Assembly: GCA_050261575.1 (NCBI GenBank)
Contig: JBLNDL010000014.1
Coordinates: 10,054-74,053, forward strand
DNA from: Sphingomonadaceae bacterium
GTDB lineage: Bacteria > Chloroflexota > UBA6077
Direction: 5' to 3'
Length of the DNA: 64,000 bases
Position numbers and translations under genes: made by a program. Under the pieces are notes generated by a model. That model was not told the DNA's origin. It was given only the letters and a program-made list of their open reading frames with translations, and searched no databases. Below are positions 2,312-43,877 of this stretch, in pieces. The stretch's first letter is position 1; each line of letters opens with the position of its first letter.

Positions 2312-2338
2312 CGTGAGGCGAGCGAGCGCAGCCTCGCG
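2312..2338. repeat. intergenic hairpin repeat, family H (loop CGAGCGAGCGCAG), copy 1
   Basis: CGTGAGG-CGAGCGAGCGCAG-CCTCGCG; flanked by more small hairpins (2287-2365). Confidence 0.55.
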
Positions 2339-2474
2339 GTTCGGCCTGCCCCGCGGCAGGAACGAGACGCTGAACGTAGTGGCTTGGGATCTGCAATCGT
2401 CCTGGTGGGAATGCCGATGCCTGGAGCCGCATCCCGATGCGGCTTCGAGGGAGCGGGCGAAGGGGGAGATCAGG

Positions 2475-2921
2475 TTGCGGAAAGAACAGAGCGTGGTACG
2501 CCTGCCAGGTAGCTACCTGCGAGAGATCGTCGAGCACGCTCGGGATGGAAGTCCCAACGAGGTGTGCGGACTGATCGCAGGCCGCGGCGGGTATCCCGTG
2601 AAGCTGTACCGGACTACCAACGACGATCCCAACCCGCGGGTTCGGTACAACGTCGAGCCCCGGGAGCTTCTGGAAATCCACAGGGAGATCGAAGAGAACG
2701 GCTGGAGCCTGATGGCCATCTACCATTCCCATCCCGCGAGCGAGGCCTATCCATCGGAGACCGACGTTAGGCTCTCCTACTATCCAGATGCCGTCTATCT
2801 GATCTGCTCGTTAGCGGACGAGGATCCGGTGGTGAGGGCTTTCCGGATAGTCGACAGACAGGTGACGGAGCTGGCGTTGGAGGTCGAAGTGGAAACAGAG
2901 GGGCAGCGGCACGCCTCGTAG
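2475..2921 (+). CDS. JAMM/MPN+ metalloprotease (Mec+-like deubiquitinase-type)
   Basis: EVCGLIAG...HSHPASEAYPSETD matches JAMM motif E..H-x-H-x7-S-x2-D; TTG/GTG start after AAGGGGGAG; upstream part of track ORF 2109.. is not coding. Confidence 0.75.
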   Translation: MRKEQSVVRLPGSYLREIVEHARDGSPNEVCGLIAGRGGYPVKLYRTTNDDPNPRVRYNVEPRELLEIHREIEENGWSLMAIYHSHPASEAYPSETDVRLSYYPDAVYLICSLADEDPVVRAFRIVDRQVTELALEVEVETEGQRHAS

Positions 2922-2954
2922 TGGGGAGAGAGAAAGAAGAAGGAGAAGGAATCT

Positions 2955-3908
2955 ATGCGGATCGCCAACGATATCACGGAGTTGATTGGGAAGACGCCGC
3001 TGGTCAGGCTGAACAGGGTGACGGAGGGGTGCCACGCCACGGTCGTGGCGAAGATGGAGAGTTTCAATCCCCTCTCCAGCGTGAAGGACAGGATCGGCCT
3101 CAGCATGATCGACGAGGCCGAGAAGGCCGGGCTGATCCGGCCGGGCAAGACGGTGATCGTGGAGCCGACCAGCGGCAACACCGGCATCGCCCTCGCCTTC
3201 GTGTCGGCTGCTCGCGGCTACCGGTTGATCCTGACCATGCCCGAGACAATGAGCGTGGAGCGGCGTCAACTGCTGAGGGCCCTCGGTGCCGAACTGGTGC
3301 TCACGCCGGGGTCAGAGGGGATGAAGGGGGCGGTCCGCCGGGCCGAGGAGATAGCCGCGGAGATTCCCGATGGGTGGATCCCCCAGCAGTTCAAGAACCC
3401 CGCCAATCCGAAGATCCACCGCGAGACCACGGCGCTGGAGATCTGGAACGACACCGAGGGGAAGGTGGACATCCTGGTGGGTGGCGTCGGCACCGGAGGG
3501 ACGATCACCGGCATCGCCCAGGTGATCAAGGCCCGAAAGCCCGGGTTCAAGGTGGTGGCGGTGGAGCCGAAGGCCTCGCCGGTGCTATCCGGTGGTGCGC
3601 CGGGTGCCCACAAGATCCAGGGTATCGGGGCGGGCTTCGTGCCGGATGTCCTGGACCGGGAGTTGGTGGACGAGATCATCCAGGTGGAGAACGAGGACGC
3701 TTTCGAGACGGGGAGAAGGCTGGCTCGCCGGGAGGGCCTGCTGGTCGGCATCTCCTCCGGAGCTGCTGCATGGGCGGCTCTCCAGGTGGCGAGGAGACCG
3801 GAGAACGAGGGCAAGCTGATCGTCGTGATCCTTCCGGACACGGGCGAGCGCTACCTGAGCACCCCTCTCTTCCAGGAGCCACAGGGTAACGGGACGGCCA
3901 GCCTGTAG
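2955..3908 (+). CDS. cysM: PLP-dependent cysteine synthase (CysM/CysK family)
   Basis: 317 aa; SVKDRIG lysine motif, GNTG, glycine-rich TGGT loop; RBS GAAGGAGAAGGA. Confidence 0.85.
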
Positions 3909-3997
3909 GGCGTCGTTCTGCAAGTCCCATGCGGTAGGGCGGGGGTTAGTGCCCCGCCGCCCGGCTCATCGGACGCGCCTGGCGGTGGGGCACACGT

Positions 3998-4050
3998 GGC
4001 GCGAGCGTGGCCGCGAGGCGAGCGAGCACAGCCTCGCGGCCACGCGCGCC
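3998..4050. repeat. intergenic hairpin repeat, family H, copy 2 (extended ~20-bp stem)
   Basis: GGCGCGAGCGTGGCCGCGAGG-CGAGCGAGCACAG-CCTCGCGGCCACGCGCGCC. Confidence 0.55.
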
Positions 4051-4341
4051 CTACGGGCGGCGCATTCGCGGAACGGCGCAATCAGTCTGCACGCACCGCG
4101 CCGGAAGCGGCGCATACCGACGTGTGGGGCGAAGCATCGGCGCTGGGAGCCTATGGGCGCGGTGATCCCCACACGCCACGGCTTCGCCCTCGTGCCTCGG
4201 CCCGGACTCTCGGCCAGGAATCCGGAGCCGTACCCCGCCACCCCCGCTCCGGTTGTTCGCGCCCCACAACCGGCCGTATAATTAGGTTAACGTCGCATAA
4301 TACTGCGTAATCCTGGTCGTGGGGGTGGGCGATTGGGCCGG

Positions 4342-5442
4342 ATGGTGGTCGTGGCCATGAGCGGTGGGGTGGACAGCTCTGTGGCCGCCGCCCTGCTGAA
4401 CCAGCAGGGGTACGACGTCGTCGGGGTCACCCTCAACGTATGGCCCGAGAAGAGTCTGGTGGAGGCCGATACCCGCCACAACGCTTGCTGCTCCCTCGAT
4501 TCGGTGGAGGATGCCCGGCGCGTGGCGGATCTGCTGGGCATACCCCACTACACCCTCAACTTCCGGGACGTCTTCGACCGGACCGTGATCGAGGACTTCG
4601 CCCGGGAGTACCTGCGTGGCCGCACCCCCAATCCCTGCGTGCGGTGCAACCGCTTCGTCAAGTTCGACGCCCTGCTTGCGAAGTCCCGAGCGCTCGGCGC
4701 GGAGTACCTGGCGACCGGCCACTACGCTCGGGTTGCGCGCTCGGATGAGGGCCGCTACGTGCTGCGGAGGGCCGTCGACGCCTCCAAGGATCAGAGCTAC
4801 GCCCTCTACTCCCTTACCCAGGAGCAGCTTGCCCACACCCTCTTCCCCCTGGGAGAGATGGAGAAGACGGAGACGCGGCGGATTGCGGCCAGACTCGGCC
4901 TCATCACGGCGAGGAAGCCCGACAGCCAGGAGATCTGCTTCGTCCCGGACAACGACTACGCCCGCTTCCTGCGGCAGAGGATCCCCTCGGCTGCTCGGCC
5001 GGGTCCCATCCTCGATCAGCGGGGCGAAGTGCTGGGGACCCATCCCGGCATCGCCTTCTTCACGGTTGGCCAACGAAAGGGACTGGGGCTGGCCTCCAGC
5101 ACTCCGCTCTACGTGCTCGAGATAATCCCCGAGCGGAACGCCGTTGTGGTGGGGGAGCGCGACGCGCTATACTCGGCGGGCCTGATAGCCGGGGACGTCA
5201 ACTGGGTTTCGATGGAGGAGCCCTCGGGGCCGGTGCGGGTGGACGCGCGGATCCGCTACCGAGCCCCGGAGGTTCCGGCGATGGCCCGCGTGCAGGGGGA
5301 TGGAAGCCTGCTGGTGGAGTTCGACGAGCCGCAGCGCGCCGTCTCCCCCGGGCAGGCTGTGGTGCTGTACCAGGGCGATCGGGTGGTGGCCGGCGGGACG
5401 ATCGAACGAGCTGTCAGCGGCCAGCCATCGGCTGTCAACTAG
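4342..5442 (+). CDS. mnmA: tRNA-specific 2-thiouridylase MnmA
   Basis: VVVAMSGGVDSSVAA PP-loop, C..CN motif, MnmA-length protein; TATAAT-like elements ~60 nt upstream. Confidence 0.85.
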   Translation: MVVVAMSGGVDSSVAAALLNQQGYDVVGVTLNVWPEKSLVEADTRHNACCSLDSVEDARRVADLLGIPHYTLNFRDVFDRTVIEDFAREYLRGRTPNPCVRCNRFVKFDALLAKSRALGAEYLATGHYARVARSDEGRYVLRRAVDASKDQSYALYSLTQEQLAHTLFPLGEMEKTETRRIAARLGLITARKPDSQEICFVPDNDYARFLRQRIPSAARPGPILDQRGEVLGTHPGIAFFTVGQRKGLGLASSTPLYVLEIIPERNAVVVGERDALYSAGLIAGDVNWVSMEEPSGPVRVDARIRYRAPEVPAMARVQGDGSLLVEFDEPQRAVSPGQAVVLYQGDRVVAGGTIERAVSGQPSAVN

Positions 5443-5499
5443 TACACTGTCGGCCGACCGCTGTCCGCTATTGGCTGATAGCTATACGGGGGAGCCTGA

Positions 5500-6330
5500 A
5501 TGGACGAACTGCACCAGAAATACGAGAAGCTGAAGGATGCCCTGCGCTCCATGGAGAGCGTGGCGGTGGCCTACTCCGGTGGGGTGGACAGCACCTTCCT
5601 GCTGAAGGTCGCCGTCGACGTGCTGGGGCGGGATCGCGTGCTGGGCATCGTTGCCGTGTCCGAATCCTATCCCGCTCGGGAGTTGGAGGAGGCGAAGCGT
5701 CTGGCAGAGGAGATGGGAGCGCGCATCCTCCTGATCGAAACGGAGGAGCTCGCCAACCCCGAGTACGCCCGCAACCCGGTCGATCGCTGCTTCCACTGCA
5801 AGACCGAGCTGTTTACCAAGGTGTACCCTGTGGCCAAGGAGCAGGGCCTGCGAGAGGTGCTGTACGGGGTGAACGCCGACGATCTGGGGGACTTCCGCCC
5901 CGGGATCCAGGCTGCCAAGCGGATGGGGGCCAGGGGGCCTCTACAAGAGGTCGGCCTGACGAAGAACGAGATCCGGCTACTGTCCCGGGAGTTGGGGCTA
6001 CGGACCTGGGACAAGCCCGCCTACGCGTGCCTCTCCTCCAGGATCCCCTACGGGCAGAGGATCACCAAGGAGGCCCTGCACCAGGTGGACGAGGCCGAGA
6101 ACTTCCTCCACGACCTTGGTTTCCTTCAGGTGAGGGTGCGCCACCACGACAGGATCGCCCGGATCGAGCTGCCCAGGGAGCAGATGTCGAAGCTGCTGGC
6201 GGATGGGTCCGCCGAGTTGATAGTGGCCAAGCTGAAGGAACTGGGGTACCTCTACGTGACTCTGGACCTGCAGGGCTATCGGACGGGCAGCCTGAACGAG
6301 GCCATCGGGGCTGCCAAGGTCGGCGCGTAG
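5500..6330 (+). CDS. PP-loop ATP-pyrophosphatase, LarE-like sacrificial sulfur transferase family (TIGR00268)
   Basis: VAYSGGVDSTFLL PP-loop; DRCFHCK; AYACLSSRIPYG resembles the LarE Cys loop. Confidence 0.7.
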   Translation: MDELHQKYEKLKDALRSMESVAVAYSGGVDSTFLLKVAVDVLGRDRVLGIVAVSESYPARELEEAKRLAEEMGARILLIETEELANPEYARNPVDRCFHCKTELFTKVYPVAKEQGLREVLYGVNADDLGDFRPGIQAAKRMGARGPLQEVGLTKNEIRLLSRELGLRTWDKPAYACLSSRIPYGQRITKEALHQVDEAENFLHDLGFLQVRVRHHDRIARIELPREQMSKLLADGSAELIVAKLKELGYLYVTLDLQGYRTGSLNEAIGAAKVGA

Positions 6331-6403
6331 GACAGACAGCATCGGGCGCGGCGTTCCACTGGGCCGCCTTCCGCCGCGGGACTCGAATCGGACGGTTGAG
6401 GTG

Positions 6404-6440
6404 GGGCACGCGGGGCGAGCGAAAGCAGCCTCGCGTGCCC
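6404..6440. repeat. intergenic hairpin repeat, family H, copy 3
   Basis: GGGCACGCGGGG-CGAGCGAAAGCAG-CCTCGCGTGCCC. Confidence 0.5.
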
Positions 6441-6645
6441 GCTCGTGTCACCTGCCCAAGGCCACCGTGATCCCGGCACTGCGGGCCGAGTGGTTCTCCG
6501 TCGAGCAGCATCTCCGGATAGAGCACTCGTTGTCCGCAAGGAGGCCGACGCGGAATGGAGGCATCTGCTCGGGGCAGGTGAGCGGCTGCACGTGGGGCTC
6601 GATTGAGGGGCCACGCAGCACCGAGAATCGTTTGAGGTGATGACC

Positions 6646-7341
6646 ATGCCTAGGCTACCAGTTGACCTGGTCGCTTTCGACCTGATGGGAACGGTGATCG
6701 AGGATACAGGCGCAATGGACAGGGCGCTGAAGCGAACCTTGAGCCACCACAAGGTCCCCTTCAACCAGCAAGAGGTGGACGCCATGAGGGGTGCCGCCAA
6801 GGTGGAGGTCTTCCGGGCCGTGGCGGAGCGCGCACTGGGGGCCGGTGGGAGCCCCGAAGCCTGCCTTGAGCTGGCCGAGAAGATGTACCGCACCTTCAAG
6901 CAGGCGCTCAGGGATGCCTACGCGGAGACGCCCCCGGTGGAGATCCCGGGCGCTGCGGCGACCATGCGCTGGCTGAGGGAGCGAGGCGTCAAGGTCGCCG
7001 CAACCAGCGCTCTGGATACCGACCAGTTGGGGCCGATGCTGGATCGGCTGGGATGGGCCGAGGGCGTCTTCGACTGCAAGGTATCCACCTATGAAGTCCC
7101 TCGGGGACGCCCTGCACCGTACATGATATTCCAAGCGATGATGAGGACAGGCGTGGTGGACGTGCGGCGGGTCGCCGCCGTGGGCGATACCCCTTTGGAT
7201 CTGATGGCCGGCACCAATGCGGGGCTCCGGTGGGTGATAGGCGTCTTGAGTGGCGCTCACCGTCTGGAGAGCCTGGGCGTTGTCCCCCACACCCACATCC
7301 TGAACAGCGTCGCCGACCTGCCGAGGATCCTGGAGGGCTAG
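6646..7341 (+). CDS. HAD-IA family hydrolase (phosphonatase/phosphatase-like)
   Basis: VAFDLMGTVIED (DxDGT-like motif I), C-terminal GDTPLD motif; start chosen 8 nt after GAGGTGA. Confidence 0.6.
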   Translation: MPRLPVDLVAFDLMGTVIEDTGAMDRALKRTLSHHKVPFNQQEVDAMRGAAKVEVFRAVAERALGAGGSPEACLELAEKMYRTFKQALRDAYAETPPVEIPGAAATMRWLRERGVKVAATSALDTDQLGPMLDRLGWAEGVFDCKVSTYEVPRGRPAPYMIFQAMMRTGVVDVRRVAAVGDTPLDLMAGTNAGLRWVIGVLSGAHRLESLGVVPHTHILNSVADLPRILEG

Positions 7342-7421
7342 ACTCTGTCGGCCCTGGTCTCGCAGTCTTGCCTGGCACGATGCTACTATACACAGCAAGG
7401 TAGATGTCGCGGAGGAGAGGA

Positions 7422-8213
7422 ATGGGCGATCAGGACCTGGGCAACAAGCCCATGTTGAAGAAGTTCGACCTCACCGGAAGGGTGGCGCTGGTGACCGGGT
7501 CGAGCCGTGGGATTGGCGCCGCCATGGCGGTGGCGCTCGCGGAGGCGGGCGCCGACCTGGCCTTGGTGGCTCGGACGGAGGATGCCCTGCAGGGGGTGGC
7601 CGGCCGGATTCGAGAATTGGGCCGGCGGGCGCTGGTGGTCCCCACCGACGTGTCTCGGGTGCCGGCTCTCACCCAAATGGTGGATCGAGTGGTGGCCGAA
7701 TACGGTCGAGTCGACATCCTGGTAAACGCCGCCGGAGTGCAGTGCCGGAAGCCGATACTGGAGGTGACGGAGGAGGAGTGGGACTTCGTCAACGACGTCA
7801 ACCTGAAGGCGGTGTACTTCTGTTCCCAGATCGTTGCCCGGCACATGCTGAAGCAGGGGAAGGGGAAGATCATCAACATAGCTTCACTCACCTCCACCAT
7901 TGGGATCGCAAACGTCAGCATCTACACGGCCACCAAGGGCGGGGTGCTGGCGCTCACCAGGGTCATGTCAAGGGAGTGGGCGAAGCAGGGGATCAGGGTG
8001 AACGCCATCGCCCCTGGCTACTTCCACACCGAATTGACCAAGCGGTTGTACGACGATCCCGCCCTGCGTCAGTGGGTCGTCGATCGGACCCCCGTGGGTC
8101 GTTGGGGCGAGTTGGAGGACCTGATGGGCACCGCGGTGTTCCTGGCGTCCGACGCATCGGATTTCATCACAGGCGAGCTGATAAACGTGGATGGTGGGTG
8201 GTTGTCGGCGTAG
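7422..8213 (+). CDS. SDR-family oxidoreductase (gluconate/2-deoxygluconate dehydrogenase-like)
   Basis: TGSSRGIGAAMA, NAAG, YTATKGG catalytic Tyr-x3-Lys; RBS GGAGGAGAGGA. Confidence 0.8.
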   Translation: MGDQDLGNKPMLKKFDLTGRVALVTGSSRGIGAAMAVALAEAGADLALVARTEDALQGVAGRIRELGRRALVVPTDVSRVPALTQMVDRVVAEYGRVDILVNAAGVQCRKPILEVTEEEWDFVNDVNLKAVYFCSQIVARHMLKQGKGKIINIASLTSTIGIANVSIYTATKGGVLALTRVMSREWAKQGIRVNAIAPGYFHTELTKRLYDDPALRQWVVDRTPVGRWGELEDLMGTAVFLASDASDFITGELINVDGGWLSA

Positions 8214-8250
8214 TGGGTGGCTGCCGGCGCAGAGGAAAGGAGGCCGGGTG

Positions 8251-9624
8251 ATGGCAACCATCGAGGGCTTCGTCGCCGAGAACGAGAAGCGGTTTCTGGA
8301 GGAGCTTAAGGAGTTTCTCCGCATCCCCTCCATCAGTGCCCTCCCCGAGCACAGGGAGGACATGGTGCGCTGTGCCGAGTTCGGCGCCGAGGAACTCAGG
8401 CGCATCGGGATGCAGCGAGCGGAGGTGCTGCCCACCGGCGGTGCCCCCGTGATCTACGGCGAGTGGCTGGGCGCGCCCGGCCGGCCCACGGTCCTGGTGT
8501 ACGGCCACTACGACGTTCAGCCGGTGGACCCGGTGGATCAGTGGAGCAGCCCTCCCTTCGATCCTCAGGTGAGAGGGAACGAGCTGTACGCTCGTGGATC
8601 GGCCGACGACAAGGGACAGGTTTTCCTCCATTGGAAGGCCGTCGAGGCCCACATGCGGGTGAACGGCCGTCTGCCGGTGAACCTCAAGTTTCTCATCGAG
8701 GGGGAAGAGGAGATCGGCAGCGAGCACCTGGACGAGTTCCTGAAGGCCAACCGGGAGCTGCTGAGTGCCGACGCCGTGGTGGTGTCGGACACCGCGTGGT
8801 TCGACAGAGGGATTCCCTCCATCTGCTACGGGCTGCGCGGTCTCACCTACCTGCAGGTGAACCTGAAGGCCGCCGCGAGCGATCTCCACTCGGGCAGTTT
8901 CGGCGGGGCCATCGCCGACCCAATCCAGGTGCTGGCCGAGATCATCGCGGGCCTCAAGGACGACCGGGGACGGGTCGACGTGCCGGGCTTCTACGACAGG
9001 GTGCGTCCTCTTTCCTCGGATGAGCGCCGGCAGTTCGCGAGCCTGCCGTTCGACGAGGAGAAGTACCGGAGGGAGATTGGCGCCGTGGCGCTTTGGGGTG
9101 AGGAAGGCTACACCCCACTAGAGAGGGTGTGGGCCAGGCCCACCCTGGACGTCAACGGGATCTGGGGAGGCTTCACGGGAGAGGGAAGCAAGACGGTGTT
9201 GCCCGCCAGGGCGTCCGCCAAGCTGAGCTGCCGGCTGGTGCCCGACCAGGATCCTGAGGAGATCTTCCGCCTGGTGTCGGCGCGGATAAGGGAGCTGTGT
9301 CCACCCGTGGTGGAGATGGAGATCGTCCCGATGCACTCTGGGATGTGGGCCATCACCCCCCTGGAGCATCCAGCCGTTCAGGCTGCCGCGCGGGCCATGG
9401 AGCGGGCCTTCCACAGGAAGCCGGCCTTCATCAGATCCGGGGGCTCGATCCCGATCGTCGCGTCCTTCGCGGAGGTGCTGGGAGCACCCACTGTGCTGAT
9501 GGGCTTCGCCCTGCCGGACGATCACGCCCACGCGCCTGACGAGCGGCTCGACCTGGGTAACTTCTTTGGTGGTATCCGAGCCTGCGCCTTCCTGTGGGAT
9601 GAGTTGGGTGGGGAGGGCCGTTGA
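8251..9624 (+). CDS. M20-family metallopeptidase (dipeptidase/ArgE-DapE-like)
   Basis: YGHYDVQP, RGSADDKG, EGEEE metal-ligand motifs; RBS AGGAAAGGAGG. Confidence 0.75.
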   Translation: MATIEGFVAENEKRFLEELKEFLRIPSISALPEHREDMVRCAEFGAEELRRIGMQRAEVLPTGGAPVIYGEWLGAPGRPTVLVYGHYDVQPVDPVDQWSSPPFDPQVRGNELYARGSADDKGQVFLHWKAVEAHMRVNGRLPVNLKFLIEGEEEIGSEHLDEFLKANRELLSADAVVVSDTAWFDRGIPSICYGLRGLTYLQVNLKAAASDLHSGSFGGAIADPIQVLAEIIAGLKDDRGRVDVPGFYDRVRPLSSDERRQFASLPFDEEKYRREIGAVALWGEEGYTPLERVWARPTLDVNGIWGGFTGEGSKTVLPARASAKLSCRLVPDQDPEEIFRLVSARIRELCPPVVEMEIVPMHSGMWAITPLEHPAVQAAARAMERAFHRKPAFIRSGGSIPIVASFAEVLGAPTVLMGFALPDDHAHAPDERLDLGNFFGGIRACAFLWDELGGEGR

Positions 9625-10595
9625 GGCTGGGCACCGGCGGACAACTGGGGTACTACGGGCTGATCGCCCTGGCGGCGGCGATGTGGGGCACCCTCGGGGT
9701 GTTGACCAAGCATCTCTACGAATACGGCGTCAGCCCGTGGTCGCTCACCTTCCTGCGGACACTTCTGGGGTTCCTGGCCTTCGGCGGGGTGATCCTCTTC
9801 TTGGATCGATCCAGGTTCCGCGTTCGGCGGCGGGATCTGCCCTACCTCGCCCTCTTCGGGCTGATCAGTACCTCGATCTTCTACGCCCTCTACCTCTACA
9901 CGATCAGCCTTACCAGCGTGGCGGTGGCCGCCGTGCTGCTCTACACCGCGCCAGTGTTCGCTGCCATCATGGCCAGGTTCGCATTCGGCGAAGCGATCAC
10001 CCCGCCCAAGGTGGTTGCCTTGCTGCTCACCTTTGCTGGATGCGTGCTGGTGGCTGGGCTCGAATCGGGGGCGCCGGTGGTGACGCCGCTTGGGATCGGC
10101 ACGGGGCTAGGCTCCGCCCTGACCTACGCCAGTTTTGGGATCATGGGCAAGAAGGCTGGCCAGCGCAACTGCCACTGGACAATCAACTTCTATTCCATGG
10201 GATTTGCCACCCTCTTCCTGTTGCCGGTGCTGGCGCTGCCGGAGGTGTCCCTCTGGCCCTACCAGACCGAGGTCTGGCTGCTGCTGGCCGTGATGACGGC
10301 GGGGCCCACCCTGGCCTCCAGGGCGCTCTACGTGGGGGCGGTGAAGCACGTGGAGGCGAGCCGGGCGGCCATCGTCGCCACGGTGGAGCCGGTCGCCGCG
10401 GCGGCCTTTGCCTTCCTGCTGCTGGGGGAGCTACTCTCCTCTAGCCAGTTGATGGGAGGCTTCCTCGTGCTGGCGGGCTCTGTGCTCGCCCAGCAGCCGG
10501 GCCGGCCGGACGCGGAGCCACGCGACCAGGGAGGCGCGCCCGCGAAGCGGGATGTTCTGGCGTCTACCTCAGCCTCACTTCAGCAGGACAGGTAG
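9621..10595 (+). CDS. EamA/DMT-family transporter
   Basis: 10 predicted TM helices with duplicated EamA-like halves; TTG start overlapping upstream stop. Confidence 0.65.
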   Translation: MRLGTGGQLGYYGLIALAAAMWGTLGVLTKHLYEYGVSPWSLTFLRTLLGFLAFGGVILFLDRSRFRVRRRDLPYLALFGLISTSIFYALYLYTISLTSVAVAAVLLYTAPVFAAIMARFAFGEAITPPKVVALLLTFAGCVLVAGLESGAPVVTPLGIGTGLGSALTYASFGIMGKKAGQRNCHWTINFYSMGFATLFLLPVLALPEVSLWPYQTEVWLLLAVMTAGPTLASRALYVGAVKHVEASRAAIVATVEPVAAAAFAFLLLGELLSSSQLMGGFLVLAGSVLAQQPGRPDAEPRDQGGAPAKRDVLASTSASLQQDR

Positions 10596-10656
10596 TCTGG
10601 ACAGCCACACTGGTGTAGAATCATACAGATCCGATTCCTGACTCCAGGACGAGCCT

Positions 10657-13098
10657 ATGAGCGCGTCGGCGTCCAGACTGCGGCGGTGGCTGCCGACTCG
10701 GCGGGGTCGGCCGACGGCAGTCCTTCCACTCGGGCTCCAGACCAGGATCGCCCTCCTCGTGGCCTCGGGGCTGCTGGCTCTCATGACTTCGTTCGTGGTG
10801 TTGGGCCTCGCCTCGTTGCGCGAGAGTACCGAGCAGGGCACTCAGCACAGGGTCGCCCTGGCACGGACGGCTGCAGTGCATCTGGACTTCATCCTGGAGC
10901 AGGCCGCCACGATGATCCGCTTGAGCGGCCAGGAACTGGCGGCGGCTCTCCAATCCCGCGACCAAGAGGCTGTTCGGGTGTCGCTGCGGGATGCAGCGCA
11001 CCGGATGGCCACTGTCGCGGATGGCATCCTCCTCTTCGACTCATCGGGACTTCTGCTGCAGTCTGAACCCTCCGATCTCAGCTTCTCCTACCCCTCGATC
11101 GGCCCCGGGGCGTTCGCTGCCCTGGCCTCTGGAGGGGCGATGGCGGTGGACTGGGTGCGCACGCCCCTCGGCGCCGTGGCTCTCGTCGTGGTGCCGTTGC
11201 CCGGAAGCGGCGAGGCCGACGGTGGCTACCTAGCTGCCGCCGTCGACTTCTCGGGCCAGGCTGTGGGCCACTGGCTTCGACAACTGGCACTGGGCAGAAG
11301 CGGGCGCGTGGACATCGTGGACGGTGATGGCGTGGTGCTCACGACGACCGACGAGCAGGATGCCCCGAGCGCCGAGAGCCACGCGGGCTACTTCGCAGGG
11401 TTGATGGCCGAGAGGCGAGCCACCGTGTCCACCTGCTACGACTGCCACACCACCTCCCAGGGGCAGGCGAGGAGCCGCGAGGTGATGGCCTATGCCCCGC
11501 TCCGAGTGGCCGACTGGGGAGTTGTGCTGCGGCAATCCGAAGACGAGGTGCTGGAGCCGACCCACCGGCTGCAGCGACAGGTGCTGGTGCTGGGGGGCGT
11601 CTCGCTGCTGGTTGCCCTCCTGATGGTGTGGCTGACCACCAGGAGCGTGGTGGGGCCCATCCGCGCCCTGACCCAGTCGGCGCGGAGGATCGCGGATGGG
11701 CATCTGGGTGAGGCGGTGGCCGTTCACGGCTCGGACGAGGTGGGTGAGCTGGCTCGCACGCTGGACCACATGAGGGCAAGGCTCCAGCGGTCGATCGAGG
11801 AGATCAAGGCGGGCGCCGCGGAGCTGGAAAGCCGGGTTCGGGAGCGCACGGCGGAACTGGAGCGCTCCGAGGGCGAGCTTCTCCGGCGCAACCGGGAGCT
11901 CTCCACTCTGAACTCCATAGCCGTGGCCCTCAACCAGTCGTTGGACCTGGAGTCCATCCTGAACGTCGCTCTCCTGAACGCGCTGCGGCTGACGGGGATG
12001 GATGCCGGGGCGATCTACCTGCTGGACGAGCACACCGGGGAGCTGGAGTTGGCCGCGCACCACGGCCTCTCGCGAGAGGCTGCCCAGGTGGCTGCGAACC
12101 TGGGATTGAGCGCCAGCCTCTGCGCGGCGGCGGCGCAGGCGGGAGAGCCCATCCTGGTGGAGGACACACACCGCTACGCAAGGGGGGCGAAGGGGGTGCT
12201 GCGCAGCGAAAAGATGAGGTGCATGGTGCGCGTGCCCTTCAAGTCCACCCGTGGCCTGCTGGGGACGATGTGCCTCGGGTCCGGCACCAGCAGGGGCTTC
12301 TCCAAGGCGGAGATGGACCTGCTGACCTCTGTCAGCAACCAGATCGCGGTCGCGGTGCAGAACGCCCGGCTGTACGAGGAGCTGCAGCGCAAGGAGAGGA
12401 TGAGGGGCGAACTGCTGCTGAAGGTGATCACGGCGCAGGAGGCAGAGCGAAAGCGGATCGCCCGGGAGCTGCACGATCAGACCAGCCAGGCCCTTGCCGC
12501 GCTGGCGGTGGCGGTGGAGACCGCCGCCGGTCAGGCGGCCGAGGGGGGAGACGTCGTCGAGAGCCTGGCGCGAATGAAATCGCTGGCAGTGGACACGTTG
12601 GAGGAGATCCACCGCCTGATCTTCGATCTCAGGCCGACGCTGCTGGACGATCTGGGGCTGATCGCCGCGCTCAGGTGGTACGCCGAGACGAGGCTGGGCG
12701 AGGTGGGGATCAAGGTGCGGCTGGAGGTGGTGGGTGAGGAGACGCGGTTGGCACCTCAGATCGAGACGGCGCTCTACCGGGTGGTGCAGGAGGCCGTCAC
12801 CAACGTGGCGAATCACTCAGGTGCACAGAGTTTCACGGTCACGCTGGTCCTCAAACCGGACCGCCTGCAGCTCAGCATGGTGGACGACGGGTGGGGCTTC
12901 GACATGGCCGAGCTAGCCCGCTCCCGTGATCAGAAGCGGGGGCTCGGGCTGATGGGGATGAAGGAGCGGGTGGAGCTGCTGGGCGGGAGCTTTTCGATCT
13001 ATTCGGAGTTGGGTGGAGGCACGAAGATCACGGTGGAGGTTCCGCTCACTGTGGGTGGGGGAGAGGGCGGCGAGGGAGAAGCGGGGCTCGCCGGTTGA
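10657..13098 (+). CDS. sensor histidine kinase: periplasmic domain with c-type heme motif (CYDCH), HAMP, GAF, HisKA_3, HATPase_c
   Basis: TM1 ~aa30-52, periplasmic CXXCH at aa260-264 (nt 11434-11448), TM2 ~aa308-327; HAMP; GAF; ARELHDQTSQAL H-box (NarX/NarL type); C-terminal ATPase. Confidence 0.8.
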   Translation: MSASASRLRRWLPTRRGRPTAVLPLGLQTRIALLVASGLLALMTSFVVLGLASLRESTEQGTQHRVALARTAAVHLDFILEQAATMIRLSGQELAAALQSRDQEAVRVSLRDAAHRMATVADGILLFDSSGLLLQSEPSDLSFSYPSIGPGAFAALASGGAMAVDWVRTPLGAVALVVVPLPGSGEADGGYLAAAVDFSGQAVGHWLRQLALGRSGRVDIVDGDGVVLTTTDEQDAPSAESHAGYFAGLMAERRATVSTCYDCHTTSQGQARSREVMAYAPLRVADWGVVLRQSEDEVLEPTHRLQRQVLVLGGVSLLVALLMVWLTTRSVVGPIRALTQSARRIADGHLGEAVAVHGSDEVGELARTLDHMRARLQRSIEEIKAGAAELESRVRERTAELERSEGELLRRNRELSTLNSIAVALNQSLDLESILNVALLNALRLTGMDAGAIYLLDEHTGELELAAHHGLSREAAQVAANLGLSASLCAAAAQAGEPILVEDTHRYARGAKGVLRSEKMRCMVRVPFKSTRGLLGTMCLGSGTSRGFSKAEMDLLTSVSNQIAVAVQNARLYEELQRKERMRGELLLKVITAQEAERKRIARELHDQTSQALAALAVAVETAAGQAAEGGDVVESLARMKSLAVDTLEEIHRLIFDLRPTLLDDLGLIAALRWYAETRLGEVGIKVRLEVVGEETRLAPQIETALYRVVQEAVTNVANHSGAQSFTVTLVLKPDRLQLSMVDDGWGFDMAELARSRDQKRGLGLMGMKERVELLGGSFSIYSELGGGTKITVEVPLTVGGGEGGEGEAGLAG

Positions 13099-13109
13099 GG
13101 GTGAAGGGG

Positions 13110-13760
13110 ATGGGGAAGATACGGGTACTGCTGGTTGACGACCACGCGATCCTGCGGGAGGGGATACGTGCCCTGCTCGCGCTGTCCAAGGATATCGACG
13201 TGGTGGGGGAGGCTGCCGACGGGCAGACGGGCATCGAGTGCGCGCGGGAGTTGGCGCCGGACGTGGTGCTGATGGATATCGCGATGCCTGTTCTGGACGG
13301 GCTGGAGGCCACGCGCCGGATCAAGGAGCGGCAGAAGGGGACGAAGGTGCTGATCCTGACCCAGCACGAGAATCGGGAGTACGTCTACCCCATCCTGAAG
13401 GCCGGCGCCGACGGGTACGTGCTGAAGAAGGCGGCGGGCACGGAGTTGATCTCGGCCATTCGTGCGGTGCACGAGGGCGGCACCTTCCTCTATCCCTCGG
13501 TGGCGAAGGCGGTGGTGGAGGACTACCTGCGTCCGGACGGGACGGTCGCCGAGCGTCGCCACGCCAGGCTCACAGACCGGGAGGTCGAGGTGCTGAAGCT
13601 GGTGGCGGAGGGGCGCAGCAACCAGGAGATCGCCGACCTGCTCTGCCTCAGCGTCAAGACCGTGACGGGACACCGGACCAACATCATGGAGAAGCTGGAT
13701 CTCCACAGCCGCACCGAACTGGTGAAGTACGCGATTCGGACCGGCCTGGTCCAGCCCTGA
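13110..13760 (+). CDS. NarL/LuxR-family response regulator
   Basis: VLLVDDH...D receiver domain; C-terminal LuxR HTH (EVLKLVAEGRSNQEIA); RBS GAAGGGGA. Confidence 0.85.
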   Translation: MGKIRVLLVDDHAILREGIRALLALSKDIDVVGEAADGQTGIECARELAPDVVLMDIAMPVLDGLEATRRIKERQKGTKVLILTQHENREYVYPILKAGADGYVLKKAAGTELISAIRAVHEGGTFLYPSVAKAVVEDYLRPDGTVAERRHARLTDREVEVLKLVAEGRSNQEIADLLCLSVKTVTGHRTNIMEKLDLHSRTELVKYAIRTGLVQP

Positions 13761-13768
13761 CGTTCGGC

Positions 13769-13803
13769 GAACAGGGCGTTTTTCCCCCTTGGAACAGGGC
13801 GTT
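13769..13803 (+). promoter_or_regulatory. tandem direct repeat GAACAGGGCGTT (x2, 23 bp centre to centre) in the dsrA upstream region
   Basis: GAACAGGGCGTT at 13769-13780 and 13792-13803, just downstream of the RR gene and ~170 nt upstream of the dsrA ATG. Confidence 0.4.
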
Positions 13804-13974
13804 CTGCGGATATGCCCCCCACCTCTGCTCCCCTAGACTGCGGACGGTAGCTTCCGCTCCGGCACCGTTTTCCATCCGAGGTCTCGCGCGCTGTCTCCCC
13901 GCCGGCTCTGGGGTGCCGATTCGTCCGCCATCAAACCGGGACAGGGGAGCGCGGAATGCTGTGGGAGGTAGTTG

Positions 13975-15159
13975 ATGGCAGACGATTCCAAGACACCCTT
14001 GGTGGACGAACTGGAAAAGGGAAGCTGGCCCAGTTTCGCCAAAGAAATGAAGCGGCGGGCCGAGAAGAACCTGGCCGCGAAGGACTTGGTAGGCCAGCTT
14101 GAACTCTCCTACCAGGAGAAACGGGTCCACTGGAAGCACGGCGGGGTCGTGGGCGTCAGGGGCTACGGGGGTGGGGTGATCGGTCGCTACTCCGACGTTC
14201 CCGAGAAGTTCCCCAACGCCGCCGAGTTCCACACGATGCGGGTGAACCAGCCCAGTGGCTGGTTCTACACCACCGAAAGCCTCCGCAAGCTGTGCGACGT
14301 TTGGGAGAAGTACGGGACGGGCCTCACCAACATGCACGGCTCCACAGGCGACATCATCCTCCTGGGCACGCAGACGGCCAACTTGCAGGAAGCCTTCAAC
14401 GCCCTGAGCGACGCCGGGTTCGACCTGGGTGGCTCCGGCTCCGACCTACGAACCCCGAGCGCCTGCGTGGGCCCCGCTCGATGCGAGTACGCCTGCATCG
14501 ACAGCCTGGGGATCTGCCACGACATCACTACGACCTACCAGAACGAGATTCACCGGCCGATGTGGCCCTACAAGTTCAAGATCAAGGTGGCGGGTTGCGC
14601 CAACGACTGCGTCGCATCCGTCGCCAGGTCCGATTTCGCCATCATCGGCACCTGGAAGGGCCCTTTGCGGATAGACCAGGCCGCGGTGAAGGAGTACATC
14701 GCCGCGGGCTTCGACGTGAAGGGCGAGGTGGTCGATATGTGCCCCACGAGGGCGCTGTGGCTGAACCAGGATGACAGCCTGGCTCTTGTCGCCGAGGAGT
14801 GCAAGCGCTGCATGCACTGTCTCAACAAGATGCCGAAGGCGATCAAGCCCGGCAGCGAGAAGGGCGCGACGATTATGGTCGGCGGGAAGGCCCCCATCGT
14901 CCGCGGCGCCTACCTCTCGTGGGTGGTCGTGCCATTCATGAAAATGGAGCCTCCCTACACGGAGTTGAAGGAGCTGCTGGAGAAGATCTGGGAGTGGTGG
15001 GACGAGCACGGGAAGTCCAGGGAGCGGATCGGGGAGTTGATCGACCGACTCGGGATGGGCCGCTTCCTCCGCGATCTGGGACTGGAGCCCTCGCCTGCGA
15101 TGGTGTTCCAGCCGAGGTCCAACCCCTACTACTTCTGGCAGCCCGAGGAGGTGAAGTGA
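13975..15159 (+). CDS. dsrA: dissimilatory sulfite reductase alpha subunit
   Basis: ~395 aa; siroheme/FeS Cys clusters ([16 protein letters not shown]), ferredoxin-like insert (CKRCMHCLN); RBS GGAGG. Confidence 0.85.
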
Positions 15160-15160
15160 G

Positions 15161-16225
15161 ATGGCAGAGGCTAGAACCGATTTCGGGCCTCCGTACTTCA
15201 AGGACATGTTGCCTCCGGTGATGGCGGAGAACTACGGCAAGTGGGTCTACCACGAGACGCTGCGCCCCGGGGTGTTGATGCACGTGGCCGAGAGCGGGGC
15301 GGCGGTCTACACGGTGAGGGTCGGCTCGCCCCGCCTGATGAGCATAGACACCATCCGAGAGCTGTGCGACGTGGCCGATCGGTACTGCGACGGCCACCTG
15401 CGCTTCACGAGCCGGCACAACGTCGAGTTTCTGCTGACCGACCCGGGCAAGATCGAGCCGCTGATGGCCGAAATGAAGAGCCGCGGCTGGCCGGTGGGCG
15501 GGACGGGAAACTCGATCAGCAACATCGTGCACACCCAGGGGTGGATCCACTGCCACAGTGCGGCCACCGACGCCTCCGCGCTGGTGAAGTCCATCATGGA
15601 CGAGGTCCAACCCTACTTCGAGAGCATGACGCTGCCCGCGAAGGTGCGGATCGCAGTGGCCTGCTGCCTCAATATGTGTGGCGCGGTGCACTGCTCCGAC
15701 ATCGCCCTTGTGGGGATCCATCGGAAGCCGCCAAAGGTGGACGCCGAGCGGCTGGCGAAGACCTGCGAGGTGCCGAACATCATCGCGGCCTGCCCGACTG
15801 CGGCGATCCGGCCGAACCCGAAGGAGAAGGGAGTCATCATCAACGAAGAGCGATGCATGTACTGCGGCAACTGCTTCACCGTGTGCCCGGCCATGCCCAT
15901 CGCCGACCCGGAGAACGACGGGGTGGCGGTCTTCGTGGGCGGCAAGGTGTCGAACGCGAGGAGCGCTCCGATGTTCTCCCGGCTGGCGATTCCATATCTG
16001 CCCAACAACCCGCCTCGCTGGCCCGAGACGGTGGCCGCGGTGAAGACCATCGTCGAGGTGTACGCGAAGCACGCCCGCAAGGGCGAGCGGGTCGGGGAGT
16101 GGATCGAGCGGGTCGGCTGGGAGCGGTTCTTCCAGTTGACGGGCATCCCGTTCACCGACAAGCACATCGACGACTTCCGCTTCGCTCCCACCACCTTCAG
16201 GACCTCGGCTGCGTTCAAGTGGTAA
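15161..16225 (+). CDS. dsrB: dissimilatory sulfite reductase beta subunit
   Basis: 354 aa; [20 protein letters not shown] siroheme-[4Fe-4S] motif, ferredoxin insert [12 protein letters not shown]; 1-nt gap after dsrA. Confidence 0.85.
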
Positions 16226-16283
16226 AGGAGTGGGATGGTGGGGGCGGGCTCCGCCCCCACCGATCCATCGAAGGGAGTTGGCC

Positions 16284-16475
16284 ATGAGTGAGGATCTGAA
16301 GGATCGGGTGATGGCCTATCTGGCCACGGTGGAGAAGGCGAAGAACAGGGACATCGCGAACGCCCTGGGGGCGCCGAAGCCCGAGGTGGACAAGGCGGTT
16401 GGCGACCTGGCCAAGGAGGACAAGATCGAGTACATCTACATCGGCACCTCCTACGTGAAGATCAAGGGGAAGTAG
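16284..16475 (+). CDS. dsrD: DsrD-like small winged-helix protein
   Basis: 63 aa MSEDLKDRVMAYLA...IEYIYIGTSYVKIKGK; position right after dsrB and size/pattern match DsrD; RBS GGAG. Confidence 0.55.
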   Translation: MSEDLKDRVMAYLATVEKAKNRDIANALGAPKPEVDKAVGDLAKEDKIEYIYIGTSYVKIKGK

Positions 16476-16487
16476 GGGCCCTCACCC

Positions 16488-16533
16488 CGCAACGCGAGCG
16501 AGTGCAGCGTTGCGCCTCTTGCAGAAGGAGAGG
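16488..16533. repeat. compound hairpin repeat: family H copy 4 plus CCTCTT..AGAGG hairpin
   Basis: CGCAACG-CGAGCGAGTGCAG-CGTTGCG, then CCTCTTGCAGAAGGAGAGG; preceded by GCCCTCACCCC. Confidence 0.55.
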
Positions 16534-16559
16534 GGGAACTGGGGACAGCCTCTCCCGTC

Positions 16560-17099: not shown

Positions 17100-17312
17100 G
17101 GGCAGGCGGGCGTGTCTGCCCGGCCGAGGTGGAAGCGCGGCGCCGTGTGTGAGGGACGAGGGCGCACCCGTGTGTGCGCCCCTGCCAGGGTGACGCCGCG
17201 TCGGTAGGGGCTGACGCGCATCGGTCTGGGCGGGCCCGAAGAGCAGTCGACGGCGAGAACGCCGAGTCGGCGGGCATGGTGGCAGGGCTGCCGGCCCCCA
17301 CGTTACCCACTC

Positions 17313-17358: not shown

Positions 17359-17425
17359 CAGAGTAGCGGAGAGATCCAGCGAGCGAGGCATTCGTTCCGA
17401 TGGCCGTGAAGCGAGGCAGTGCTAG

Positions 17426-28275: not shown

Positions 28276-28287
28276 GAAAATGGTGGC

Positions 28288-30269: not shown

Positions 30270-30296
30270 CGCAACGCGGGCGAGCGCAGCGTTGCG
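30270..30296. repeat. intergenic hairpin repeat, family H, copy 6
   Basis: CGCAACG-CGGGCGAGCGCAG-CGTTGCG between convergent folK and the aldolase gene. Confidence 0.55.
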
Positions 30297-32637: not shown

Positions 32638-32862
32638 CCGCCGGTGGCGTCCCGACGATTGCGGAAAACCTGCCAGCGAGGGTAGACACACAGGTCTGTC
32701 TCTACTGGGTTTCCGCAACCCCGAGTTCACTACCGTCCTGATGGTCGTAGCGAGTAGTGGCATGCGCCGTGCAACCCTCGGCCGATTCCGCGGTGGCGAG
32801 GAGGCCGATCTCTCCGCTTCCGAAGGGAGAGGGCCGAGTCGCGAGAAGAGCAGCAGATCCCG

Positions 32863-42185: not shown

Positions 42186-42411
42186 TCCCGTTGCTCCTTT
42201 CCGCTGGCCGACGACGACCAACAGCAGTACTGGACAGGTATACGTGCAATGGTCACTAGGACCCCAAGAAGTAGTATCGGCAACTCTCCGCAACCTCTGT
42301 AGAGGTAGCGGGGTTGGTTGGGAGTGGGGTTTCACCAACCTCCTTGACAGGGGGACTGTGCCGCCACAGAATGTGCGGGGGTGCACAAACTCACTCGGGG
42401 TGGTGGGAGCG

Positions 42412-43623
42412 ATGGCCAGGGGACTCACGGGGTTGCGGGTTCTCGATCTCTCACAGGCGCTGTCTGGCCCCTATGCGGGGATGATCCTGGGCGACTTGGG
42501 GGCAGAGGTCATCAAGATCGAGCCCCCGGGCGGTGAGATCTTTCGTAATCTGGGGCCCTACTATCGGGGTGGGTGGAGCAGCTACTTCGTGAGCATTCAC
42601 CGGAACAAGAAGGGGGTAGTGCTGGATCTCAAGAAGGAGGGAGGTCGCCAAGCCTTCCTGGATCTGGCCAAGGTCTCCGACGTGGTGCTGAACAATTTCA
42701 GGCCGGGGGTTCTGGAGCGGTTGGGGATCCCCTACTCGCTGATGAAGGACGTCAACCCCCGGGTGATCGTGGCCTCCATCACGGGCTACGGCTCCACCGG
42801 CAGTTGCCGCCACAAGACCGCCTTCGATCTCGCCGTGCAGGCGGCTAGTGGGGTGCTCAGCGTGACCGGTACCGAGGATGGGGAGCTGGTGAAGTGCGGC
42901 GTGCCGGTGGCGGACCTGGCGGCTGGCATGTTCGCGGTGATCGGGATCCTCACGGCGCTCCGGGAGCGGGAGGTAAGCGGCCAGGGGCAACACGTGGACG
43001 TTTCCATGTTCGACACGCAGCTATCGATGCTGAGCTACCAGATCTCCTGGTACACCTCCAGCGGGGACGTTCCGAAACCGATAGGGACGAGCCACCTCGG
43101 GTTGGAGCCATACGGGGCGTACAAGACTAAGGACGGCTACCTGGTATGGACTATCGGCACCGAGGACTTCTGGCGCCAGCTTTGCCGGGTGCTGGGGGTG
43201 CCCGATCTCGCCTTCGATCCCCGTTTCGACACCGTCAAGAACCGGCACGAGAACCGAGCCGAGTTGAAGCGGATCCTGGAGGAGATTCTATCCACCCGGA
43301 CGACGTCCGAGTGGATGGTGGTGATGGAGAAGGCGGGCATTCCGGCGGCGCCCGTGAACAACCTGGCCCAAGCGCTAGAGGAGCCCTGCGTTCGGGAGCG
43401 GCACATGCTGGTCGAGGTGGACCAGCCCGGATATGGGAAGGCTTACATTGCCGGGAATCCGGTGAAGCTCTCTCGCACCGGCGGCGAGGAGTTCACTCCC
43501 ACGCCTGCCTTGGGTGAGCACACAGTGGAGGTTCTGCGGGAAGTGGCGGGCTACTCCGCGGCCAAGATCGAGCAACTGCTGAGCGAGAAGTCCGCCGTGC
43601 AGGGTCAACTCCTCACGGTCTGA
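42412..43623 (+). CDS. family III CoA-transferase (CaiB/BaiF)
   Basis: [31 protein letters not shown]-terminus and conserved Asp region; the 5' 350 nt of track ORF 42055.. is non-coding leader. Confidence 0.8.
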
Positions 43624-43826
43624 GTGCGCAGCTTTGCCGTCGCGACTTGGAGTGATCGAAGGATGAATGGAGGGCGGGGCAGCCTCTTGCCCGCAGAGAC
43701 GCCCACACGAGCGAGCCTGTCCGGCAGTGGCGCGCCGGTTGGCAAGGGTGACGGGGGCGATGGCTGCCGTGTCGGGTTTCGGTCCCGAACCTGGCTATCG
43801 GGTCAAACCCGCGACGATGGAGAAGG

Positions 43827-43877
43827 ACAGGGAGTGGCCGGCTGGGTGCGAGCGACACCCGGCCGGCCACTCCCTGT
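43827..43877. repeat. long hairpin related to family H (loop CGAGCGA), copy 7
   Basis: ACAGGGAGTGGCCGG(CTGGGTG-CGAGCGA-CACCCGG)CCGGCCACTCCCTGT; 15-bp perfect outer stem. Confidence 0.5.

Follow-up and report, generated by a model that had tools for sequence, protein, structure and literature searches.

A dispersed family of intergenic hairpins with a conserved loop and co-varying stems in a dsr-carrying Chloroflexota genome

Here, we investigated a dispersed family of intergenic hairpins in a 64-kb stretch of contig JBLNDL010000014.1 (positions 10,054 to 74,053, GenBank assembly GCA_050261575.1; hereafter the window). The window has 66% GC and no tRNA genes, and it carries housekeeping genes together with a dsrAB / dsrD-like / RsbRD_N / dsrMKJOP cluster (13972-22425). 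An original prediction, made from the letters of this DNA, described a real dispersed family of intergenic hairpins, and we largely uphold it on the basis of members found with a covariance model, their placement between genes, and stems that co-vary. In each hairpin, an 11-nt loop, GAGCGAGCGCA, sits on a stem whose closing pairs are G-C and C-G. We read the family, with about an even chance of being right, as short, non-autonomous palindromic DNA repeats similar to repetitive extragenic palindromes (REPs) and miniature inverted-repeat transposable elements (MITEs), in which the loop would be the recognition determinant and a role as hairpins in 3' untranslated regions (3' UTRs) would be secondary.

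Using 53 distinct copies, drawn from the window as well as from other contigs, we built a covariance model, R1, with 39 positions and 8 base pairs and ran it without filters on the whole window. R1 returned exactly seven members at 33.4–46.4 bits, listed in Table 1, and the next scores were below 20 bits apart from the antisense of the same seven sites. A repeat finder gave one family (direct-repeat family D4) made of six 27-nt units at 2312, 4012, 6409, 16488, 17313, and 30270. Six of the seven copies listed in the original prediction were confirmed as one family by both approaches (R1 scores of 34.3–46.4 bits), but the seventh, at 43827, is not a demonstrable member. R1 was blind to 43827-43877 even at E ≤ 10, and the loop of this hairpin has just CGAGCGA in common with the family. 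We also considered a truncated member at this site, which the same R1 search does not support. This very strong, unique hairpin lies between a CoA-transferase gene and the gene for the ferredoxin subunit of a 2-oxoacid:ferredoxin oxidoreductase. Furthermore, the first census had overlooked a member on the minus strand at 57611-57649 (core 57618-57644, 33.4 bits). This is the weakest member, and the minimum-free-energy fold of the wider region favours other pairing. Five members score far above our best control, described below, while 6404 (34.3 bits, though with a 13-bp stem) and 57618 barely exceed it (32.7 bits).

The loop was initially described as 13 nt long. It is conserved as claimed, but its first C pairs with its last G, leaving a true loop of 11 nt in which positions 2, 6, 7, 8, and 9 vary among the window copies. 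Two types of inner stem recur in the window: type A, CGYGRGG/CCTCGCG, in the copies at 2312, 4005, and 6404, and type B, CRCAACG/CGTTGCG, in the copies at 16488, 17313, and 30270. The types differ at two base pairs, with both sides changed each time, as expected of compensatory double changes. The minus-strand copy has the inner stem CGACGC/GCGTCG. Copy-specific outer arms extend some of the stems, such as the 7-bp GCGTGGC/GCCACGC at 4005 and GGGCA/TGCCC at 6404. The proposed “stem-variable” logic needs correction, as the stems in the window are not free to vary; their inner part comes in two inherited types, to which the copy-specific outer extensions are added. The stems were also said to remain perfectly complementary, which is incorrect, as there is one G·U pair each in 2312 and 6404 and an A·C mismatch in 17313. 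Hairpin energies of the copies range from -10 to -46 kcal/mol.

The claim that the stems co-vary holds, both through the two compensatory double changes between types A and B and through the 53 distinct copies, which come from many contigs. Moving outward from the conserved AACGC/GCGTT, the next two pairs form in 42/53 and 37/53 sequences, with all four Watson-Crick types represented, and the pairing just outside the conserved stem comprises 18 GC, 16 CG, 4 AU, and 2 UA. The covariation score is 0.281 compared to 0.127 for shuffled sequences, with 0 of 500 shuffles reaching the observed score, and 0.065–0.160 for slid controls. Similarly, outer stems are 78% paired, compared to 28–41% for the slid controls. 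Complementarity had been taken as a sign of selection on RNA or DNA secondary structure, and selection on RNA structure is not supported. We counted 14 G·U and 15 A·C among 530 stem cells, small numbers that show no G·U excess, and in other phyla the hairpin is found downstream of U-tract terminators. Because G·U is no more common than A·C, we do not see the strand-specific wobble tolerance expected of an RNA-selected structure. This parity and the position after U-tract terminators lead us to favour a DNA-level palindrome.

We also weighed whether the family is no more than a GC-rich, quasi-repetitive motif (GCGA GCGA GCGC) recurring by chance in a 66% GC genome, an explanation that is effectively refuted. 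It draws on the bare 13-mer loop motif, which, allowing up to 2 mismatches, is seen 13 times compared to 7.15 expected, a modest enrichment that is not significant (3 of 100 shuffles reach 13). It also draws on a scan of the loop plus the 3' arm (pattern CGRGCGARHRCAGCSTYGCG) over one genome per species, which we used as a negative control and which gave at least 117 matches, mostly one per unrelated GC-rich genome. However, the control matches do not have the paired 5' arm. Among those listed, 3–4 of 7 positions of the 5' arm are most often paired, no fully paired 7/7 arm occurs outside two loci of the Chloroflexota metagenome-assembled genome (MAG) SBF912SR1HQ0014 (JBMNNU01), and the best R1 score over 742 kb of these loci is 32.7 bits. 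The window copies, in contrast, all have paired arms, are all intergenic, and are all co-oriented, and their stems covary. With ~11% of the window being intergenic, the probability of seven out of seven intergenic copies by chance is ~2e-7. The family signal is carried by loop, paired flanks, and position together and not by the bare loop motif. Rfam gave no match in the window at the gathering threshold, and at E ≤ 1 seven family-bearing loci gave tRNAs and spurious matches only. A literature search did not find the motif string in any paper. A resemblance of GCGAGCGA to a conserved segment of 23S rRNA is probably a low-complexity coincidence.

All seven members are intergenic by our gene map, as had been claimed for the original list, and all are co-oriented with the upstream gene, 13–214 nt past its stop codon. 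See Table 1 for the genes at each site. No U-tract follows any of the seven copies, their 3' flanks are GC-rich, and a terminator scan reports no family copy. Canonical terminator-like sites in window positions 1-20000 are at chance level, with 8 found compared to 7.5 expected. Other 3' ends in the window have unique strong hairpins, at 22975 and at 46731-46766, the latter with 16 bp and -37.6 kcal/mol, between convergent genes and lacking a U-tract. An RNA role and a replication-strand bias would each fit the co-orientation. Orientation relative to transcription is inseparable here from orientation relative to replication; the cumulative GC skew rises over ~1-40000 and is then flat, and the plus-strand copies all lie at 2–30 kb with the minus-strand copy at 57.6 kb. 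We also considered a riboswitch or 5'-leader, which was rejected on the inconsistent distances to the downstream start and on copy 6, which has no downstream co-oriented gene. A mechanical list of open reading frames (ORFs) stretches the JAMM ORF upstream over the hairpin at 2312, where the coding signal begins only at ~2400-2475.

Next, we compared the dsr cluster to that of related genomes. The closest non-self relatives of the RsbRD_N protein are in Chloroflexota MAGs at 57–63% identity, and five syntenic relatives (57–63% amino-acid identity) share the gene order histidine kinase, response regulator, dsrAB, dsrD, RsbRD_N, and dsrMKJOP. The gap between dsrD and RsbRD_N is 12–35 nt in two of the five relatives, and RsbRD_N and dsrM overlap in four of the five, with a 17-nt gap in the remaining one (L189; contigs and loci are given by L numbers throughout). 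In the window, these genes are separated by 108 and 326 nt, with copies 4 and 5 in between. R1, run without filters on 92 kb of syntenic dsr-locus DNA from the five relatives, found no member and nothing above 15.8 bits. We infer that copies 4 and 5 are additions rather than ancestral sites. As for the locus itself, synteny over 13972-25507 is conserved with the Chloroflexota MAGs L191, L193, L194, and L189. A Cons_hypoth698 gene upstream of dsrA in the relatives is missing in the window, a second DsrMK-like pair is found on the minus strand at 23007-25507, and we noted neither a dsrC nor a ferredoxin gene past dsrP, on a coarse look at 22426-23006.

A near-identical strain (99.9% DNA identity) is present in seven Logan sequencing-run assemblies. 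Six independent Logan assemblies of this strain stop at the same base within the element at 17313 (...CGTTGCGCCTCTCCC), as a de Bruijn graph would at a k-mer shared with other loci. Three Logan contigs start within the hairpin at 4005, at positions 4016, 4033, and 4035. Contig breaks inside the elements imply more identical copies elsewhere in the genome, though the differing starts in 4005 could instead reflect a drop in coverage within a strong hairpin.

The family is patchily distributed in other lineages. The Chloroflexota MAG SBF912SR1HQ0014 (~56% GC) has three copies in 11.6 kb, including one with a third stem, GTGTGGCG/CGCCACAC, and one in a window-like compound of CCCCTCACCCC, the hairpin, and GCCTCTCCC..GGGAGAGGC. 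A metagenome scan for the type B core gave 56 loci of 39–71% GC in many unrelated flank contexts, and the neighbouring genes examined are housekeeping genes, with no transposases. Contig L170 was assigned to Parcubacteria (Veblenbacteria/Giovannonibacteria) by exact protein look-up. A protein of L156 is an exact member of a cluster at ≥90% identity annotated as Handelsmanbacteria/Latescibacteria, and a protein of L182 is an exact member of a ≥90% identity cluster whose sole named member is a Clostridia MAG. In all, the apical hairpin is found in at least four phylum-level lineages. Viral contigs gave no match to the pattern, and plasmids gave no match to the hairpin-carrying branched element of L152 described below. 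Unfortunately, our survey of gene orientation at the metagenome loci was too noisy, with false “inside gene” calls even for the window copies at 2312 and 4005. One JGI metagenome contig (L145) has two plus-strand and two minus-strand copies surrounding 3 kb, which at first suggested a REPtron or a transposon, but the contig is a fold-back chimera. Its positions 36-2215 are an inverted copy of 2350-4539, its ORFs have no Pfam matches, and its hairpin architecture is an assembly artefact.

In Parcubacteria (L179, L152, L131, and L175) and in Clostridia-like contigs (L182 and L142), the hairpin belongs, as one of several arms, to a branched element of ~95–125 nt. The base stem of this element is an exact inverted copy (10–13 nt) of the T-loop and the 3' strand of the T-stem of the neighbouring tRNA; for example, GGGATTTGAA is the reverse complement of TTCAAATCCC. 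The inverted copy pairs with a duplicated tRNA 3' end, and each unit in L179, L131, L152, L182, and L142 ends in a copy of the last 13–20 nt of the adjacent tRNA. Because TTCAAA is not palindromic, the left flank is inverted, not direct. The branched unit is located after the tRNA’s own canonical U-tract terminator and is in tandem in some contigs, with periods of 159 and 163 nt. These inverted flank copies at tRNAs mirror the copy-specific outer arms in the window. The tRNA-linked elements are found at L179 2350-2700, L170 (reverse strand), L131 1-480, L152 820-1560, L182 3080-3640, and in L142. A comparison of L170 and L179 shows a 7.6-kb island inserted into tRNA-Ser(GCT), and L152 also has a 5' tRNA-Ser fragment followed by hairpins.

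Like REPs and REPINs, the family consists of short (27–41 nt), GC-rich, multi-copy palindromes, all seven of them intergenic in 64 kb, which lie mostly between unidirectional or convergent genes and are therefore co-transcribed. It also has sequence subfamilies inside one genome and a likely secondary role as mRNA 3' hairpins. Embedding in flanking palindromes is likewise a feature of REP families such as T. roseum GTAG-23, A. variabilis GTAG-15, and H. neapolitanus CGTC-1; some REP families lie in palindromes that are absent without the REP, and REP families common to distant taxa have been described (PMC3733652). REPs are marked by a GTAG or GTGG (or CGTC) tag 0–2 nt from the stem foot (PMC3733652, PMC6006769), and published search rules specify loops of 2–5 nt or bulged long hairpins (PMC6006769). 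The resemblance to REPs and bacterial interspersed mosaic elements (BIMEs) put forward in the original prediction remains the best available analogy, but it fails on strict criteria, with no tag in the window copies, an 11-nt loop, and no flanking REP-associated tyrosine transposase (RAYT) gene found in the window or at five other loci. The family further differs from REPs and REPINs in having no head-to-head or tail-to-tail dimers in the window and an apical hairpin that crosses phyla. Because there is no tag, the conserved loop is large, and no RAYT gene is seen, we call the family REP-like; it works like a REP rather than being one.

Other known systems fit less of the anatomy. The hairpin substrates of HUH enzymes, such as the origins of CRESS-DNA (circular Rep-encoding single-stranded DNA) viruses, rolling-circle Rep origins, and the ends of IS200/IS605, have a conserved loop and a freely pairing stem and are read as folded single-stranded DNA (ssDNA). 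By analogy, our hairpins would share with these origins and nick sites the conserved-loop, variable-stem logic only; they differ in being dispersed, with no adjacent rep or tnpA gene. Like intrinsic terminators, the family forms a stable GC-rich hairpin shortly past the stop codon, in one case between convergent genes. Unlike terminators, it has no U-tract and a conserved 11-nt loop, and in other phyla it follows a genuine U-tract terminator. Integron attC sites are imperfect palindromes of 57–141 bp with R''(RYYYAAC)...R'(GTTRRRY) at their outer ends, found at the 3' end of promoterless cassettes. We rejected an attC reading, as AAC/GTT lies beside the loop of our hairpins and not at the outer ends, the units are 27–41 nt, and the flanking genes are housekeeping genes in conserved synteny. 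dif and K-turn readings were ruled out on anatomy.

If the REP/MITE-like reading is correct, a structure-specific DNA enzyme acting in trans would recognise the apical part (the two closing pairs and the 11-nt loop), most likely an ssDNA-hairpin-recognising HUH/Y1-type protein encoded outside the window. The stem would be under pairing constraint only. Copies may arrive in, or be kept in, gene-free DNA just past stop codons, and may then become embedded in copy-specific arms that are inverted copies of the local flank, either by insertion into pre-existing palindromes or by templated palindrome extension. When co-transcribed, a copy would form a hairpin (-10 to -46 kcal/mol) within the intercistronic RNA or the 3' UTR. 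Because the region is without U-tract terminators, these hairpins are probably secondary 3'-end, exonuclease-blocking, or attenuating structures, as might be the case between dsrABD, the RsbRD_N gene, and dsrMKJOP.

Several points weigh against this reading. The co-orientation of 7/7 copies with transcription (two-sided p ~0.016) would fit an RNA function too. No consistent GTAG/GTGG or CGTC tag was found at the seven window copies, with both strands inspected, and GTAG abuts the stem in some metagenome classes only (L127, L128, and L138). In contrast to REPs, the most conserved part of the family is its 11-nt loop, and the stems vary. Pfam scans showed no transposase, RAYT, or other HUH gene in the window, and no such gene was found beside the hairpins in L143, L182, L051, L139, and L056. 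A regular expression for RAYT motifs gave no match. The RAYT search proposed in the original prediction is thus negative for the window and for these five loci, and covers those only. Lastly, the evidence for mobility comes only from distant relatives, and copy number was counted in the 64-kb window only.

It is possible, though on balance unlikely, that the hairpins are instead cis-acting RNA elements (U-tract-less terminators, attenuators, or mRNA-stabilising 3' structures) selected at each locus and not mobile, with the conserved 11-nt loop bound by an RNA-binding protein or another RNA. Each of the seven window copies follows a gene at a short distance and in the same orientation, the copy at 30270 between convergent genes is in a classic terminator position, and the two intercistronic copies in the dsr cluster make differential expression plausible. 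The hairpins are stable, canonical terminators are at chance level, and the unique hairpins at 22975 and 46731 suggest a niche that is normally hairpin-filled. However, an RNA element is difficult to reconcile with the lack of a G·U excess (14 compared to 15 A·C), or with the five syntenic relatives, in which the same junctions lack the element and the genes abut or overlap. In the Parcubacteria and Clostridia-like contigs, the hairpin comes after a canonical terminator and beside tRNA 3'-end duplications, which is not an mRNA-like context. Furthermore, the orientation to the nearest gene end is mixed at the metagenome loci, by crude gene calls, and no Rfam family matched.

The tRNA-linked units raise the idea that the hairpins are remnants or att-site structures of small integrative or satellite elements moved by site-specific recombinases, the window copies being decayed relics. 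We regard this as improbable. The copies of 13–20 nt of tRNA 3' end that close the units in L179, L131, L152, L182, and L142, the tandem periods of 159 and 163 nt, and the 7.6-kb island in the same tRNA-Ser (L170 compared to L179) are all in its favour. However, the window lacks tRNA genes and an integrase, none of its hairpins is flanked by direct repeats, and its copies are scattered behind housekeeping genes. The flank duplicate is also inverted and not direct, unlike the footprint of tyrosine-recombinase integration. More speculatively, and with a rather low probability, the apical hairpin may be the signature of an undescribed, phylum-crossing mobile or recombinogenic element that targets DNA able to fold into hairpins (terminator palindromes or tRNA T-arms, for example) and leaves an inverted flank duplication. 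If true, this would mean a conserved, loop-reading, structure-specific enzyme, HUH or other, working by a different mechanism from that of RAYT/REP.

To our knowledge, small palindromic repeats have barely been described outside Proteobacteria and Cyanobacteria, although they affect how operons are expressed, how plastic a genome is, and how well it assembles. The family described here breaks short-read assemblies of an uncultured, dsr-carrying Chloroflexota-like organism at reproducible points. Relatives have a compact dsrABD / RsbRD_N / dsrMKJOP cluster; the hairpins within it here may decouple sulfite reductase expression from that of its membrane complex. It is unusual for one loop to be shared by Chloroflexota, Parcubacteria, Clostridia-like, and Handelsmanbacteria/Latescibacteria-like contigs. 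This spread across phyla, together with the inverted duplication of flanks, is the puzzling and more interesting side of the family. Should a conserved enzyme use the loop as its handle, the family would offer a tractable entry to a loop-read, stem-free logic unlike canonical REP/RAYT and would help explain how palindromes form around such elements.

Some copies are part of larger compound units, in which the order is GCCCTCACCCC (M1), a hairpin, and then a CCTCTCCC..GGGAGAGG hairpin (M3). The compound architecture reported earlier is present at 16478-16533 and 28221-28275 and is degenerate at 17300-17359, but the unit at 28221 does not have the family loop. It scores 12 bits with R1 and is not a family member, as a different hairpin, H2 (CGTGAACGTGCC-ACT-GGCACGTTCACG, 28231-28257), takes the place of the main hairpin. 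The M3 of this unit is CCTCTCC-CGAG-GGAGAGG, and its 3' arm overlaps the likely panC ribosome-binding site. Copies 4 and 5, as well as the 28221 unit, combine M1, a hairpin, and M3 into BIME-like mosaics, as do units in L056 and L160. Unlike BIMEs, the window modules are in one orientation and are not alternating inverted REPs with defined linkers. Oppositely oriented pairs of copies were seen only in L135 and in the chimeric L145. Hairpins nearly identical to H2 follow main-family copies in the metagenome contigs L136 and L161, and M1 and M3 modules are also found in other taxa (L056, L160, L143, and L166). Within the window, M1 recurs at 16478, 28221, 40053, and ~53497, and M3-like sites are found at 17339-17359, 28257-28275, 32809-32832, and 44150-44178. 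At ~53470-53575, the modules form a larger palindrome, CCCTCACCC ... GGGGTGAGAG, probably where two minus-strand genes leave a gap. Some of the GGAGAGG arms run into likely ribosome-binding sites, such as that before panC at ~28279-28290.

Table 1. Hairpin family members, associated modules, and related hairpins in the window
Feature	Position	Strand	Inner-stem type	R1 score (bits)	Energy (kcal/mol)	Structure	Neighbouring genes
Copy 1	2312-2338	+	A	43.1	-17.3	Stem CGTGAGGC / GCCTCGCG, 8 bp including one G·U; loop GAGCGAGCGCA; weaker outer pairing over 2298-2356	95 nt past Rrf2 regulator stop (2217); ~137 nt before JAMM/MPN gene
Copy 2	4005-4045 (core 4012-4038)	+	A	41.9	-45.7	Perfect 15-bp stem; loop GAGCGAGCACA; additional pairing across 3998-4052	97 nt past cysteine synthase stop (3908); 288 nt before mnmA
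Copy 3	6404-6440	+	A	34.3	-31.8	13-bp stem including one G·U; variant loop GAGCGAAAGCA	74 nt past stop (6330) of NAD-synthase-like gene
Copy 4	16488-16514	+	B	45.7		Stem CGCAACGC / GCGTTGCG; loop GAGCGAGTGCA; centre of compound unit	13 nt past dsrD-like ORF stop (16475); 70 nt before RsbRD_N gene
Copy 5	17313-17339	+	B	43.5		Stem CACAACGC / GCGTTGCG, one A·C mismatch; consensus loop	214 nt past RsbRD_N stop (17099); 87 nt before dsrM
Copy 6	30270-30296	+	B	46.4		Loop GGGCGAGCGCA	Between convergent genes; 31 nt past folK stop (30239); 16 nt from stop (30312) of minus-strand HpcH-type aldolase gene
Copy 7	57618-57644	-		33.4		Minus-strand CGACGC GAGCGGGTGCA GCGTCG	~60 nt past cupredoxin-like gene (57704-58108, -); before ccmE (57052-57525, -); co-oriented with both
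No demonstrable member	43827-43877	+			-50.3	21-bp hairpin, loop CGAGCGA, no U-tract	
M1, GCCCTCACCCC	16478-16488	+				Directly 5' of copy 4; also before family hairpins in L056 and L160	
M3, degenerate, CCTCT-TGCAGAAGG-AGAGG	16515-16533	+				Hairpin directly 3' of copy 4	
M3, GCCTCTCCC-AGG-GGGAGAGGC	17339-17359	+				9-bp hairpin abutting copy 5	
Related compound without family loop	28221-28275	+				M1 GCCCTCACCCC, H2, M3; z = -4.06	

The window also has a second repeat family of ~87 nt, read on the minus strand at 46762-46850, 49450-49548, 49613-49711, and 58231-58329. Its units follow the pattern AGGTATCTC...GAGTAC...CCCGCCGG...GTTGACA...GAGATACCT, with a 10-bp outer inverted repeat and an internal TTGACA. 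They are found upstream of or beside an MCP gene (46841-49309) and at the 3' end of a histidine kinase gene (58319-59701). The four copies show no compensatory changes and no Rfam match, and the family could be an operator/promoter module or a MITE.

Near copies 1 and 2, the genes for the Rrf2 regulator and cysteine synthase flank one for a JAMM/MPN-domain protein (2475-2921, HSHP...S..D motif), with a ThiF-family gene upstream (187-1215). This set resembles the CysO-type sulfur-carrier cysteine pathway. The Rrf2-family regulator gene (1780-2217) is preceded by a promoter at 1693-1720 that matches the sigma-70 consensus perfectly (TTGACA, 16 nt, TATAAT). This promoter shares bases with a palindrome, TGTCAAT-GGAT-GTTGACA, at 1681-1698, and the combined site at 1681-1720 looks like an autoregulated operator.

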